From: Candidatus Nealsonbacteria bacterium
Lineage (GTDB): Bacteria > Patescibacteriota > Minisyncoccia > Minisyncoccales > MHMH01
DNA: 64,000 bases
Assembly: GCA_016188865.1 (NCBI GenBank)
Contig: JACPGX010000005.1
Span: 9,188 to 73,187, forward strand
Reading direction: 5' to 3'
Part shown: one piece after another, positions 8,670-54,402 of the stretch
Layout: every line of letters starts with the position of its first letter
Position numbering within the stretch: position 1 is the first letter of the stretch
Notes under the pieces: model-generated
Databases searched by the model: none
What the model was told of the DNA's origin: nothing
The model's input: only the letters and a program-made list of their open reading frames with translations
Program-made: the position numbers and the translations under genes

Positions 8670-8754
8670 GGAGGGGTCGCATAGTGGCCTAGTGCGTCCG
8701 CTTGGAGAGCGGATATACCGCAAGGTATCGCGAGTTCAAATCTCGCCCCCTCCG
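8670..8754 (+). tRNA. tRNA-Ser (GGA)
   Basis: Acceptor GGAGGGG/CCCCTCC. Anticodon arm TCCGC-TTGGAGA-GCGGA. 16-nt variable arm TATACCGCAAGGTATC. T arm GCGAG-TTCAAAT-CTCGC. Discriminator G. Starts 2 nt after the toxin stop. Confidence 0.9.
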
Positions 8755-8793
8755 CCTTGACAAGAGAGTGAAACGTTTTAAGATAAAAATATT

Positions 8794-14250: not shown

Positions 14251-15981
14251 ATGTTAGGCTCTTCCATTGAAGAAATAAAAAATCGGCTGGATATCGTCGA
14301 AGTCATAGGTTCTTATATTAAATTAAGCAAGGCCGGAATCAATTTTCGCGCCCCCTGCCCTTTTCATTCAGAAAAAAAGCCTTCTTTTTTCGTTTCTCCT
14401 GTCCGTCAAATCTGGCATTGTTTTGGATGCAATTCCGGCGGAGACATTTTTAAGTTTGTGATGCAAATTGAAGGCGTGGAATTCGGCGATGCCCTGCGTC
14501 TTTTGGCTCAAAAGGCCGGCGTGGAACTAAAAAAACAATCTCCGGAATATGTTCAGTGGAAGAGCAATAGAGAAAGACTTTACGAAATTTGCGAGCTGGC
14601 TTGCCGTTTTTTTGAAAAACAACTGGAAGAAGGAACCACGGGAAAAGAAGCCAAGCAGTATCTTTTGGGTAGGGGCATAACGGAGGAAAGCCTTAAGAAA
14701 TGGCGGGTGGGCTATGCCCCTGATGTTTGGCAGGGCTTGTCTGATTTTCTGAGTTCCAGAGGGTACAAGAAAGAAGAAATTGAGAAAGCAGGGCTTGCCC
14801 TGAGCTCGTCGAAGGGTTCTTTTTACGATAGGTTTCGGAGCAGAATTATTTTCCCGATTTTTGATTTAAACTCTCAAGTGGTCGGCTTTGGCGGCAGAAT
14901 TTTTAAGTCTGACGATCCGGCTAAGTATGTTAATTCTCCCAGCACTTTGCTTTATGATAAAAGCAGAATTCTTTATGGTTTGAATAAAGCCAAGGTAGAA
15001 ATTAGAAAGAAAAATTACTGTATTTTAGTAGAAGGCTACGTGGATTTGATTTTAGTTTCACAGGCAGGTTCAGAAAACGTAGTTGCTACTTCCGGCACAG
15101 CTCTTACTCCTTACCAATTGCAGATTATTAAAAGATATTCCGATAATTTATATACTGCTTTTGATATGGACGTGGGAGGAGATTCAGCTACCAAAAGAGG
15201 CATAGATTTGGCTCAAGCTCAGGGCTTTAACGTTAAAGTAATCACCATGCCCGAAGGCAAAGATCCGGCAGATGTTATTTCTCAAAATCCTCAAGACTGG
15301 GAGGGATTGGTGAAATCAGTTAAATCAATACTGGAATTTTATTTTGAAACAACTTTTTCCAGGTTTTCCAGCGGCACTGCTGATGGCAAGAGAGAGATAT
15401 CAAAAATTCTTTTGCCCGTAATTAAAAGAATACCCAACAAAATTGAGCAATCGCACTGGCTGCAGGAATTGTCCAAAAAAATAAGCATAAGAGAAGATGT
15501 AATTACAGAAGAGCTCAAAAAAATAAACATTACAAATTTGCCAAATAATTTTATAATAGAAGATATGGAAAGCAAAGTTCCGGTTTCAGTAAAAACCAGA
15601 AAAGAATTATTGGAAGAAAGAATTGCTTCTTTAGCCATAAAATCTCCTCAGGACTCCTTATGCCTTATTACCGAAGATTGCACCCCCTTCTTTGGACAGA
15701 AAATTCAAACGGTCTTAGCCGATTTAAAAAATAAAATTTTGCCTCAGGACCAGGAATTTTTTAATTATTTGTCCTTGAAGGCCGAAGTTGAGGAAGAGGG
15801 GATTGACTGCGAAAAAGAGATTAAGACCTGCTTAAGGGAAATAAGTAATTTGGATACGAGAAAGCAGCTAGACGGACTATCTCAAGATATTAAAAAAGCC
15901 GAAGACGAGAAAGACCCTGCCAGAGTTTCCAGTTTAATACAAAAATTTAAAGAGTTAACAAGTAAATTAGTAAATATATGA
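14251..15981 (+). CDS. dnaG: DNA primase DnaG
   Basis: Zinc ribbon [36 protein letters not shown] region [20 protein letters not shown]. Confidence 0.95.
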
Positions 15982-17189
15982 AGAAGAAAAAGACCCGTCG
16001 AAAGCTAAAGCATTCAGGCGGGCGGAGAAAACACGTTAAGGGGCCAAAGAAGCGGATAATCAGGCGAGCAAAGAAACCCGCCAAAAGGCCGCGAATGCGG
16101 CCAATTAGGCGGGCAGGGGAAAAAATTGGAAAAATAGTGACGCCGGAAAAAATTCAGGAATTGATAGATAAAGCCAAAAATAGGGGATTTATCACCTACT
16201 CTGAAATTTTGTATTTATTTCCGGAAATAGAAAAAGACATAAAAGGCCTGGAACTTCTTTACGACGAGCTGGAAAAAAGAGGAATTGAAGTTAAGGAAAC
16301 CAGGGAATTTTTAGAAGTCGGCCCTAAAACTAAAGAACCGTTTGGCGGAGGAGCAGAAACTGTTTTAGATCCTGTTCAAATATACTTAAAAGAAATTGGA
16401 ACCGTTTCCTTTTTAACAGCAGATGAGGAAAAAGAATTGGCAAAGCGCATTGAAAAAGGCGATGACGAGGCGAAAAATAAATTGATGAGAGCCAATTTAA
16501 GATTGGTTGTTTCTATTGCCAAAAAATATATTGGCAGGTCTCCGAATTTAACTTTGCTTGATTTAATTCAGGAGGGGAATATCGGCTTAAGAAGAGCGGT
16601 TGAAAAATTCGATTGGAGAAGGGGTTATAAGTTTTCCACTTACGCCACTTGGTGGATAAGACAGGCAATTACCAGAGCCCTTGCTGATCAAGCCAGAACC
16701 ATAAGGATTCCAGTGCACATGGTTGAAACTATCTCTAAATATACTCAAGTTAGGCGTCGTCTTTTGCAGGATTTGGGCAGAGAACCATTAGCCGAAGAAA
16801 TTGCCGCTGAAATGGGCATTGATGTAGATAAAGTCCATCATATTCAGAAAATTTCCCAAGAGACAGTTTCCTTGGAAACTCCGGTTGGCGAAGGAGAGGA
16901 AGATTCTGTTTTGGCTGAGTTTATTGAAGATGAAAAAATTATCACTCCGTCTCAAGAAGCGGCAAGAACTTTACTGCGCGAAAGATTGTCGGAAATTTTG
17001 GTTGATTTAGCTCCCAGAGAGCAAAAAATTCTGGCAATGCGTTTTGGTTTGGAAGACGGCGTCACTCATACCCTTGAAGAGGTGGGCAAGGAATTTGGCG
17101 TCACTCGTGAAAGAATTCGCCAAATTGAAGCTAAGGCTCTTGATCGCATTCGCGACCACGCCGCTTTAAAAAAGTTGAAAGGATATTAG
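15978..17189 (+). CDS. rpoD: Primary RNA polymerase sigma factor (RpoD/SigA) with a highly basic N-terminal extension
   Basis: Regions 2-4 are present: [48 protein letters not shown] and [24 protein letters not shown] overlap with dnaG. Confidence 0.95.
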
Positions 17190-17304
17190 GGTTATACAGG
17201 GCCTTGAAAATAACCGTAAACAATGTTAATTTACATAGGAAAATAATGGGATGGATTGAAGGAGTCTTTAAGCAAAGTTAAAATAATTATTTTCGCCGTT
17301 GCGC

Positions 17305-17571
17305 TCCGCGGTGGCGCAATGGTAGCGCGGCTCGCTGTAGTAAATGCAGCTCCCTAAGGAAACTTAAGGATGAAATTTCTGGGATAACGGTGGAACCCTT
17401 ATGGGGTAATACCGTGGGAACCCCCTCCTCCAGAGGAGGGGGGCACCGTAGAGACTAGATACCAGAACACCTAAAACAGAAACGTTATGGTGAAGATATA
17501 GTCCACTCCTAAAAGTAATTTTAGGGCATAGTGTAACGAGAAGGTTGCAGGTTCGAATCCTGCCCGCGGAG
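17305..17571 (+). tRNA. tRNA-Asn (GUU) interrupted by a group I intron (exons 17305-17338 and 17534-17571)
   Basis: Spliced product is 72 nt: TCCGCGG TG GCGC AATGGTA GCGC G GCTCG CTGT|TAA CGAGA AGGTT GCAGG TTCGAAT CCTGC CCGCGGA G. U1-A72 and G73 are typical of bacterial tRNA-Asn. No encoded CCA. Confidence 0.85.
17339..17533 (+). ncRNA. Group I intron (195 nt, no ORF) in the anticodon loop
   Basis: P1 is GCUGU|..GCAGC with a U.G at the splice site. P3 UUCUGG/CCAGAA. P4 ACGGUG/CACCGU. P7 ACUAGAU/AUAUAGU within the conserved GUAGAGACUAGA and AGAUAUAGUCC blocks. P8 CACC/GGUG. P9 CCUAAAA-guaa-UUUUAGG. Terminal omega-G at 17533. Confidence 0.85.
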
Positions 17572-17586
17572 CGCAACGGCGAAAGA

Positions 17587-17609
17587 GCCGCCCGAATGGG
17601 CGGCTTTTT
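17587..17609 (+). terminator. Intrinsic terminator after tRNA-Asn
   Basis: GCCGCCC-gaat-GGGCGGC followed by TTTTT. Confidence 0.85.
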
Positions 17610-17691
17610 AGTCCTTGCCCTTGCCCCACCCGCCCGTGCGCGGGCAACAGATTTACTCCCATTGCCTCAAAGTTATCCACAGTTGACGCCC

Positions 17692-17728: not shown

Positions 17729-19180
17729 ATGCTTACCAAAAGACAAAAACAGATTTTTGAATACGTAAAAAAATATATTGAAAAAAAGGATTACGCCCCT
17801 TCTTTTGAAGACATAAGAAAGCATTTTAGATTAGCTTCGAGATCTACCGTTCATCACCACATAGAGGCCTTAGAAGAGAAAGGATATTTAAATAAATTTG
17901 GCAGCCGAGCCCGTGCTATAGAAATTATAAAAAATAAAGGATCTTCATTTTTGGTTAATGTTCCGCTACTTGGAACAATAGCCGCGGGTCAACCGATAGA
18001 GGCGATTGAAAATAAAGAAATAATTGCGGTGCCGAAAGATAAGATTCATTATTCGGAAGAAGTCTATGCTTTAAGGGTGGCCGGCAATAGTATGATTGAC
18101 GAAAATATTAATAATGGAGATATTATTCTGGTGAGACACCAAGAAACTGCCGAAAATGGGCAAAAAATTGTTGCTTTGATAGATAATCACGAGGCGACAC
18201 TTAAAAAATATTATCGAGAGGGAGGGCATATCCGTTTACAGCCGGCCAACAAGAGCATGGAACCGATTATTCTTCGAAATGGTCGTGATATTTCCATACA
18301 AGGAGTAGTTCTCGACGTTATCAGGGGTCTTGGCACGTTTCCTTCCGAAAATGTTTTACCGGATGAGTTAATAAAACAAGTAAAATCTAAAAATAGTGCT
18401 CCATATTTTAAAATGAATAACCTTGAAATATATAAAGAGGATATTCTTAAAATTAGTTCAATCCCCGATAATTCAGTTGATCTGATTGTTACTTCGCCGC
18501 CCTACAACGTAGATATTCATTACAATTCCCATGCAGATAATTTAACTTACGATGATTATCTAGAATTTACCAGAAAGTGGATTAAAAAGTGTTTTGATTT
18601 AGCAAAAAGTGAGGGACGATTTTTGCTGAATATCCCACTTGATAAAAATAAGGGTGGCCAAAAATCAGTTGGGGCAGATATTACTAAAATTGCAAAAGAT
18701 ATTGGCTGGAAATATCACTCAACAATTGTCTGGAATGAAGGAAATATATCTCGCCGCACCGCTTGGGGTTCGTTTATGTCCGCTTCCGCCCCATATGTTA
18801 TTGCTCCGGTGGAATTGATTTTAGTTTTATACAAAGATAGTTGGAAAAAAACAGGCGGCAGTAGGAAAAACGATATCACAAAGCAAGAGTTTATGGACTG
18901 GACTAATGGAGTTTGGACTTTCAATGGCCAAAGCAAAAAGGGGGCAGGTGGCCACCCCGCGCCATTTCCGATTGAGTTGCCAAGGAGATGTATCAAATTA
19001 TTCAGTTTCATTGGCGACACGGTTCTAGACCCATTTTTGGGCAGCGGTTCAACATTAATCGCTTCTTACCTGCACGATAGAAAAGGGATTGGCGTTGACA
19101 TTGATGAAAAGTATTGTAAGATTGCTATAGAGCGGTTGCAACAGGAAGGTAAAATAAATCAAAAAAGTTTATTAAAATAA
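17729..19180 (+). CDS. LexA repressor (wHTH + S24 peptidase) fused to a beta-class N4/N6 DNA methyltransferase
   Basis: aa 1-200 form a full LexA: wHTH STVHHHIEALEEKGYL, cleavage site TIAA|GQP, Ser in VAGNSM, Lys in ATLKKY. aa 229-483 form the MTase: MNNLEIYKEDIL.., motif IV DLIVTSPPYN, HPAPFPIELP, motif I VLDPFLGSGST. The track shows one continuous 483-aa ORF. Confidence 0.8.
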   Translation: MLTKRQKQIFEYVKKYIEKKDYAPSFEDIRKHFRLASRSTVHHHIEALEEKGYLNKFGSRARAIEIIKNKGSSFLVNVPLLGTIAAGQPIEAIENKEIIAVPKDKIHYSEEVYALRVAGNSMIDENINNGDIILVRHQETAENGQKIVALIDNHEATLKKYYREGGHIRLQPANKSMEPIILRNGRDISIQGVVLDVIRGLGTFPSENVLPDELIKQVKSKNSAPYFKMNNLEIYKEDILKISSIPDNSVDLIVTSPPYNVDIHYNSHADNLTYDDYLEFTRKWIKKCFDLAKSEGRFLLNIPLDKNKGGQKSVGADITKIAKDIGWKYHSTIVWNEGNISRRTAWGSFMSASAPYVIAPVELILVLYKDSWKKTGGSRKNDITKQEFMDWTNGVWTFNGQSKKGAGGHPAPFPIELPRRCIKLFSFIGDTVLDPFLGSGSTLIASYLHDRKGIGVDIDEKYCKIAIERLQQEGKINQKSLLK

Positions 19181-19184
19181 CGCC

Positions 19185-19784
19185 ATGAAAAAGGATAAAA
19201 GAAAAAATAATCACGTTCAAAAAGACCTCATTATTGAGTTCTTTAAGAAGAATCCAAGCCGAGACATAAAACATCCCGAAGTCGTTGATTGGGTAGTGGC
19301 GACCTACAAAAAGAGAACGGGAAATGTTTTTCGCGATCCCGACAGGTCAATTCGTCAATTGGCACAAAGTGGATTTTTAATAAAAATCGCTAAAGGAATT
19401 TATAAATATGATCCTCAAAAGGCCCATAAAAGAGAGTTGGAGGATTTTACCGCTGCGCAAAAAGAAGTAATTCTTAAAAGAGACGGCTATAAATGTGTTA
19501 TTTGTGGTAGAGGTAAAAAAGACGGCGTTGATTTACATATTGACCATATAAAGCCAAAAGATTTTGGCGGCGAGGCCACAATTGAAAACGGCCAAACATT
19601 ATGTTCACAGCATAATTTTATCAAAAAGAATTTAAAGCAAACCGAGACCGGGAAAAAGATGTTTATCCGTCTCTACGAATTAGCAAAGAGTGAGGGAAAC
19701 GATGAATTAAAAAAGTTTTGCGCCGATATTCTGGAAACCTATGAGAAATATAATATAAATGGCCATATTATATGGAAAAGGTAG
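19185..19784 (+). CDS. HNH endonuclease (candidate restriction enzyme partner)
   Basis: CVICGRGKKDGVDLHIDHIKPKDFGGEATIENGQTLCSQHN. Begins 4 nt after the MTase stop. The N-terminal ~90 aa are unassigned and may be a recognition domain. Confidence 0.8.
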   Translation: MKKDKRKNNHVQKDLIIEFFKKNPSRDIKHPEVVDWVVATYKKRTGNVFRDPDRSIRQLAQSGFLIKIAKGIYKYDPQKAHKRELEDFTAAQKEVILKRDGYKCVICGRGKKDGVDLHIDHIKPKDFGGEATIENGQTLCSQHNFIKKNLKQTETGKKMFIRLYELAKSEGNDELKKFCADILETYEKYNINGHIIWKR

Positions 19785-54330: not shown

Positions 54331-54402
54331 TCGGGGCGCTGGGAGTTGAACCCAGGTCACAGGACCCCCAGCCCTGCATAATGGCCGTTATACTACGCCC
54401 CG
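54331..54402 (-). tRNA. tRNA-Pro (GGG)
   Basis: Minus strand: CGGGGCG..CAGGG-CTGGGGG-TCCTG..CTGGG-TTCAACT-CCCAG-CGCCCCG-A. C1-G72, A73 and G37 fit Pro. The D-arm pairing is unusual. Confidence 0.8.

Follow-up and report, generated by a model that had tools for sequence, protein, structure and literature searches.

Group I introns that interrupt bacterial tRNA genes between anticodon positions 35 and 36 have been described in genes for tRNA-Asn and for tRNA-Asp of Patescibacteria by Nakagawa et al. (mSystems 2026, PMC13011429; bioRxiv July 2025). Their survey of 4,934 complete genomes recorded 333 tRNA group I introns with lengths of 184-894 nucleotides (nt; mean 257), at sites that included 33/34 in tRNA-fMet, 34/35 in tRNA-Leu and 36/37 in tRNA-Arg; 28 lay at 35/36, and 19 of these 28 were found in Patescibacteria. 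According to the same authors, introns at the 35/36 site were unreported before the tFind tool, and the tFind study had listed a tRNA-Asn of this kind as 'Asn.4Ug'. Two of the Patescibacteria 35/36 introns self-spliced precisely in vitro, as established by sequencing of the ligated exons, and a mutant in which the terminal guanosine of the intron (omega-G) was changed to C gave no exon ligation. Subgroup covariance models placed the Patescibacteria tRNA introns in subgroup IA. Here we analyse a 64-kilobase (kb) stretch of DNA, referred to throughout as the window, and describe within it a gene for tRNA-Asn(GUU), most likely from a Patescibacterium, that is, with high confidence, split at 35/36 by a compact 195-nt group I intron, predicted to be self-splicing and containing no open reading frame (ORF).

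Joining 17305-17338 to 17534-17571 in silico yielded a sequence that ARAGORN folded as a canonical tRNA-Asn(GUU) with a normal cloverleaf, the anticodon loop CU-GUU-AA, a U1-A72 pair, the discriminator G73 and a single G27.A43 mismatch at the upper end of the anticodon stem. In its intron mode, ARAGORN called tRNA-Asn(gtt) and placed an intron of 195 nt at gctgt|taacg; the raw position that it reports, 34/35, is the canonical 35/36 because the D-loop is short. A preliminary description of this DNA, made from the letters alone, had given the same two exons, the same 195-nt intron ending in G17533, and the same acceptor pair, discriminator and spliced loop, and its coordinates proved exact. The mature tRNA-Asn is 67-89% identical to the tRNAs of 37 relatives (see below), the best match being that of locus L038 at 89%. 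The exons of L038 are, by our own reading, those of the published tRNA-Asn gene of GCA_030583765.1, for which Nakagawa et al. give a 93% match to a tRNA-Asn that has no intron (PMC13011429). In a focused cmscan search, 17250-17650 scored 54.0 bits (E=4e-13) with the Rfam group I intron model (RF00028, Intron_gpI), whose gathering score is 50, and model positions 1-253 were fully covered. When the intron was folded together with 6 nt from either exon, the minimum free energy (MFE) structure had -70.1 kcal/mol (z=-3.96) and recovered P1, P2, P3, P4, P5, P6/P6a, P8 and P9. The coordinates of all features are collected in Table 1.

Table 1. Features of the split tRNA-Asn(GUU) locus, in window coordinates
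Feature	Positions	Strand	Basis
Site resembling a promoter (TTGAAG-17-TAAAAT), immediately upstream of the pre-tRNA leader	17256..17284	+	Consensus match only, 9/12
5' leader strand of the 14-bp leader/trailer helix, predicted to stack on the acceptor stem	17291..17304	+	Duplex with 17571-17584
5' exon of tRNA-Asn(GUU), positions 1-35, ending ...GCUGU	17305..17338 (34 nt)	+	ARAGORN intron mode and in-silico splicing
P1: exon GCUGU 17334-17338 / guide GCAGC 17346-17350, with U35.G (U17338.G17346) at the 5' splice site	17334..17350	+	Read from sequence
Group I intron of 195 nt without an ORF; last base G17533 (omega-G)	17339..17533	+	RF00028 match; ARAGORN intron mode; 60-72% identity to 37 homologous introns
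P2 hairpin 17351-17358 / 17363-17370, GAAA tetraloop 17359-17362, one C.A mismatch	17351..17370	+	Compensatory changes in 8/8 pairs
P3 5' strand UUCUGG, partner 17462-17467 (CCAGAA)	17377..17382	+	100% of cells paired; compensatory changes in 4/6 pairs
P4 (17387-17392 / 17410-17415) around P5 (17395-17398 / 17404-17407)	17387..17415	+	Covariation
P6 (GG 17416-17417 / CC 17446-17447) and GC-rich P6a hairpin (17423-17430 / 17436-17443)	17416..17447	+	cmscan, alignment, MFE fold
P7 5' strand within GUAGAGACUAGAU, partner 17496-17504, pseudoknot with P3	17451..17460	+	8/8 pairs invariant, 38 sequences
P3 3' strand CCAGAA	17462..17467	+	38-sequence alignment
P8 hairpin CACC...GGUG with CCUAAA...UUAUGG motif resembling the 11-nt tetraloop receptor	17468..17492	+	Compensatory changes in 3/4 outer pairs
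P7 3' strand (AUAUAGUCC)	17496..17504	+	38-sequence alignment
P9 hairpin CCUAAAA-GUAA-UUUUAGG	17508..17525	+	Compensatory changes in 6/7 pairs
3' exon of tRNA-Asn, positions 36-73 (UAACGAG...CCGCGGA-G), no CCA encoded	17534..17571	+	ARAGORN intron mode and in-silico splicing
Trailer (3') strand of the leader/trailer helix, starting at discriminator G73	17571..17584	+	Duplex with 17291-17304
Terminator-like GC-rich hairpin AGCCGCCC-GAAU-GGGCGGCU, overlapping the five-T run 17605-17609	17586..17609	+	Read from sequence

Relatives of the intron were sought in one genome per GTDB species with the pattern GCTGT-N5-9-GCAGC-N85-115-GTAGAGACTAGA. The same intron core was present at 43 loci, which do not include the window's own genome; their labels are mostly Patescibacteria (Saccharibacteria, Paceibacteria, Doudnabacteria, Wildermuthbacteria and others), and a few are metagenome-assembled genomes (MAGs) labelled otherwise. 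A whole tRNA-Asn gene could be rebuilt at 37 of the 43 loci, with the 35/36 site and an intron of 180-222 nt that is 60-72% identical to the window intron. The junction at which G17533 is followed by the UAA of the 3' exon recurs as G|UAA in 37/37 relatives. We aligned the window intron with these 37 (38 sequences in total) and mapped the structure manually, including the P3/P7 pseudoknot. Standard pairs occupied 88.8% of the alignment cells, compared with 38-43% when the 3' partners were slid by 1-3 columns, and compensatory changes were present at 33 pairs, values that 0 of 500 column shuffles equalled. The covarying helices were P2, P3, P4, P5, P8 and P9. All 76 invariant columns of the alignment are matched by the window intron, including those of the J6/7-P7 core, the 3' strand of P7 and omega-G. 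The central claim of the preliminary description, that a tRNA-Asn(GUU) is split at 35/36 by a compact ORF-less group I intron, is thus upheld by the covariance model, the in-silico splicing, the U.G pair together with omega-G, and the covariation over 37 homologues.

The individual helices proposed earlier fared unevenly. P1, P3, P7, P8 and P9 stand as drawn. A P2 helix is present, but the 7-bp stem with an AAA loop gives way to an eight-pair register (UCCCUAAG/CUUAAGGA) capped by a GAAA tetraloop and containing a C.A mismatch; the P6a hairpin is also present, but it had been drawn one register off. P4 required reassignment. It had been drawn as 17387-17392 with 17444-17449, a pairing without compensatory change, in which an A-to-U change in 7 sequences breaks the pair while 17449 stays U. 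Because base 17415 turns to A in the same 7 sequences, we assign P4 to 17387-17392 / 17410-17415, with an end pair that alternates between AU (31 sequences) and UA (7 sequences). Within the enclosed P5, a pair is GC in 20 sequences and CG in 13. The segment 17444-17449 falls instead to the 3' strand of P6 and J6/7; P6 is invariant, and P6a occurs in every relative, aligning poorly because its length varies. We noted that this segment (CACCGU) nearly repeats the 3' strand of P4 (UACCGU, 17410-17415) and could pair with the 5' strand of P4 in 93% of alignment cells, without supporting compensatory change. The near-repeat might reflect an alternative fold or triple-contact constraints on J6/7.

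The P7 helix contains the guanosine-binding site of group I introns generally, and its 3' strand in the window intron, GAUAUAGUCC, lay outside the search pattern. The 5/5 pairs of P1 were invariant across the 38 sequences, an invariance that was partly selected because both P1 strands sat in the pattern. Peripheral motifs were read as docking contacts by general GNRA-receptor rules. The window intron combines a GAAA L2 with the CCUAAA...UUAUGG motif of P8, and a GUAA L9 with a CCC/GGG P5. Of the 38 sequences, 31 have GAAA as L2, and most of these 31 carry a CCUAA...UAUGG-type motif in P8; this receptor-like motif is absent from 6/6 sequences with another GNRA L2, where the loops go with short P8 helices (Fisher p=6e-4 for the L2/P8 association, relatedness ignored). 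Most sequences with a GAAA L9 carry a GCUAAG...UAUGC motif in P5, and this motif is absent in 8 of 9 sequences with a GUAA L9, the window intron included (p=7e-3 for the L9/P5 association, relatedness ignored). Read by eye, P5 of those GUAA-L9 sequences starts with C-C/G-G pairs. These tetraloop/receptor combinations fit a folded ribozyme in which the predicted tertiary contacts would form.

Several points weigh against this account of the gene. The RF00028 score exceeds the gathering threshold by only 4 bits, and a scan of the whole window loses the match; P2 carries the C.A mismatch. P1, P6 and P7 are fully paired yet never vary, and hence lie outside the reach of covariation, and P1 and the 5' strand of P7 were fixed by the search pattern. 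The set of relatives was picked with a pattern derived from the window and the structure was then drawn on that same set, both of which inflate the pair counts. The host phylum, most likely Patescibacteria, is read from protein identity and synteny with labelled MAGs, and self-splicing of the window copy would follow by analogy with its homologues.

The P2 mismatch and the covariance-model score barely over threshold, together with a tRNA inventory confined to the 64-kb window, would also suit a decayed, non-splicing relic, in which case this tRNA-Asn copy would be a pseudogene and another copy would serve the cell. We regard this as highly improbable. All helices are intact in both the alignment and the MFE fold, the invariant columns are kept in full, the tetraloop/receptor combinations match the family pattern, and promoter-like and terminator-like signals lie on either side of the gene. 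A second tRNA-Asn was found in the 64-kb window neither by default ARAGORN nor by an Rfam scan at the gathering threshold, and intron-bearing and intron-less copies of the same anticodon rarely co-occur in genomes (PMC13011429). Slimmer still is the chance that the gene is a tRNA-Thr(UGU) with a 33/34 intron, the 5' splice site following U33 (17336), the intron ending at G17531 and the loop reading CU-UGU-AA: a G located two bases ahead of the proposed omega-G makes this permissible in the sequence, and ARAGORN chooses it, as tRNA-Thr(tgt) with a 33/34 intron, at most homologous loci, a known two-base boundary ambiguity that Nakagawa et al. also describe (PMC13011429), but we reject it because U33 faces A17348 in P1, leaving no U.G pair at that splice site, whereas U35.G17346 is invariant in 38/38 sequences, ARAGORN calls Asn at the window locus, U1-A72 with G73 and the 89% identity to the L038 tRNA-Asn point the same way, and the sequenced ligated exons of a homologue correspond to 35/36 excision (PMC13011429).

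For the tRNA-Asn(GUU) gene with a 35/36 intron, the following course of expression may be proposed. Transcription would start downstream of dnaG-rpoD, probably from the gene's own promoter, and would end at the hairpin and T-run. The intron would fold into the P3-P9 group I core while the exon GCUGU and the guide GCAGC form P1; the GAAA of L2 would probably dock on the receptor-like motif of P8, and the GUAA of L9 probably on the C-C/G-G pairs of P5, in an Azoarcus-type arrangement. An external guanosine would attack after U35 of the P1 U.G pair. G17533 would then occupy the guanosine site of P7, and the 3'-OH liberated on U35 would attack the 3' splice site, so that U35 is joined to U36 and the loop CU-GUU-AA is restored. 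Ordinary end-processing would be followed by addition of CCA, a step that we propose because none is encoded.

The predicted pre-tRNA carries a further element outside the intron. Its leader and trailer form a perfect 14-bp duplex (-26.5 kcal/mol; z=-5.7 versus shuffles) that continues the acceptor stem through G73. The split tRNA-Asn genes of L003, L011, L012 and L021 have helices of differing sequence in the equivalent place, and these four and the window gene are all (5/5) without an encoded CCA. In the 31 remaining relatives that had sufficient flanking DNA for the comparison, comparable complementarity was seen in L044 alone (z=-2.5), as a weak duplex (-4.6 kcal/mol). The helix was found in 0/6 intron-less tRNAs of the window and the loci, and we therefore rejected the idea that it is general to the tRNAs of these genomes. 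Tentatively, and with well under even confidence, we suggest that the helix could serve the pre-tRNA as a dedicated element: a clamp keeping the exons together while the ribozyme folds, or a site at which intron-bearing tRNA-Asn undergoes double-strand-specific processing. The available parts of Nakagawa et al. make no mention of a leader/trailer element (PMC13011429).

The gene lies about 115 nt past the stop codon of rpoD (15978-17189), which follows dnaG (14251-15981), and the order dnaG-rpoD-tRNA-Asn is common to 12 fetched loci, most of them labelled Patescibacteria. In the best-matching locus, L003 from a Candidatus Wildermuthbacteria MAG, RpoD is 76% and DnaG 60% identical. Because gene order and RpoD identity are shared with labelled MAGs, the host is most likely a Patescibacterium, of Paceibacteria/Parcubacteria type. 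The G+C content of the window is 40.5%, and an identical rpoD occurs in a single record, a Logan contig from SRR12113424. A tRNA-Ser(GGA) gene lies upstream of dnaG-rpoD-tRNA-Asn in the window (8670-8756) and also in L005, L016 and L023, which suggests that tRNA-Ser(GGA)-dnaG-rpoD-tRNA-Asn is a conserved neighbourhood.

The two sites that bracket the pre-tRNA in Table 1 are the putative promoter and terminator of the tRNA-Asn gene. The latter, at 17586-17609, was not called by a consensus scan, and Rfam gave just weak matches there to terminator-containing models. Farther downstream, the ORF at 17729-19180 combines a LexA-like N-terminal part (TIGR00498, 1e-58, residues 2-200) with an adenine DNA methyltransferase-like part (residues 225-481), and it is directly followed, 1.6 kb downstream of the tRNA-Asn gene, by an HNH endonuclease-like ORF of 199 amino acids (19185-19784). 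Together they resemble a restriction-modification pair that includes a regulatory domain of the LexA type. Derivation of this HNH protein from the HNH homing endonucleases of some Patescibacteria tRNA-Asn introns was considered and found unsupported, the sole similarity being 34% identity over 70 residues around the HNH motif.

The gene escapes routine annotation. Run with default settings, ARAGORN returned only the tRNA-Ser (8670-8756) and a tRNA-Pro (54331-54402), as did an Rfam scan of the whole window at the gathering threshold, and both missed the split tRNA-Asn; in the Rfam scan, the RF00028 match was dropped by the speed filters despite exceeding the gathering score. Because the match surfaces only when a short stretch is searched under relaxed filters, the intron would escape standard Rfam runs on whole genomes. 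Since default tools miss the gene, the genome would seem to be without a tRNA-Asn, which would lower its completeness scores and could lead to a false inference of gene loss, an annotation point also raised by Nakagawa et al. (PMC13011429). The present finding is chiefly of use for annotating tRNA-Asn in genomes of this kind. The locus extends by one a family of compact ribozymes (180-222 nt) with many natural sequence variants, and it leaves knowledge of group I introns and of tRNA biology unchanged.

The Azoarcus ribozyme, at 205 nt, is longer than the shortest members of this family. We noted introns of only 180-185 nt in L003 (5289-5410), L007, L019, L012, L033 and L037, which makes them candidates to be the smallest group I introns in nature. 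Their lengths are at or below the 184-nt minimum given for bacterial tRNA group I introns in PMC13011429. The window intron had been called among the smallest of its type; this holds roughly against all tRNA group I introns in that survey and fails within its own family, where 7 of the 37 relatives have introns shorter than 195 nt. In the same way, the tRNA-Asn host and the 35/36 site, which had seemed uncommon, are so across bacteria (28/333) but not in Patescibacteria, where they are dominant (PMC13011429).

Among known systems, the published Patescibacteria 35/36 tRNA-Asn introns are those that share with the window gene the same tRNA, anticodon and site and, if our placement of the host is correct, the same phylum; like it, they escape default tools and are open to misreading as a tRNA-Thr with a 33/34 intron (PMC13011429). 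The exact sequence of the window intron is absent from the published tables of that study. The tRNA-Asn intron of GCA_030583765.1 (Paceibacteria, 205 nt; Table S3 of PMC13011429) is 67% identical, belongs to the same core family and shares the blocks GGGAUAACGGUG, AAUACCGUGGGAAC, CCGUAGAGACUAGAUACC and GAUAUAGUCCAC; the same core is also found in a tRNA-Asp and a tRNA-Tyr. The tRNA-Asp intron spliced in vitro (196 nt) has a compact layout like that of the window intron and is 57% identical to it, and the tRNA-Asn intron spliced in vitro, from GCA_016700035.1 (234 nt), is 56% identical and differs by an extra hairpin between P7 and the 3' strand of P3 (PMC13011429). The window intron does not have this hairpin: by inspection, the 3' strand of P3 begins one base after P7 (17460, then 17462), with no insertion of the P7.1/P7.2 type. 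Extra P7.1/P7.2 helices at that place would point to subgroup IA. The layout of the window intron looks Azoarcus-like, and IA and IC3 are its two candidate subgroups.

As generally known, the Azoarcus tRNA-Ile(CAU) intron and small IC3 introns have an ORF-less compact core of about 200 nt, as the window intron does, and Azoarcus-type introns also share with it the GNRA-capped P2 and P9, a P8 motif resembling the 11-nt receptor, and a P3 3' strand placed directly after P7. They differ in that the Azoarcus intron sits at 36/37 of tRNA-Ile, against 35/36 of tRNA-Asn here, and in the sequence of J3/4-P4. The cyanobacterial and plastid tRNA-Leu(UAA) introns are likewise self-splicing group I introns placed in the anticodon loop after the U of a P1 U.G pair; unlike the window intron, they occupy the 34/35 site and have other peripheral helices, and the Nostoc PCC 7120 intron used as a control measures 249 nt (PMC13011429). 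The blocks GUAGAGACUAGA and GAAGAUAUAGUCC are common to the window intron and the IC3 introns of Table S5 in the same study. [quoted passage not shown] Set beside these systems, the window intron is a further member of the published, experimentally validated Patescibacteria class, an already known class, at its expected site and, most likely, in its expected phylum.

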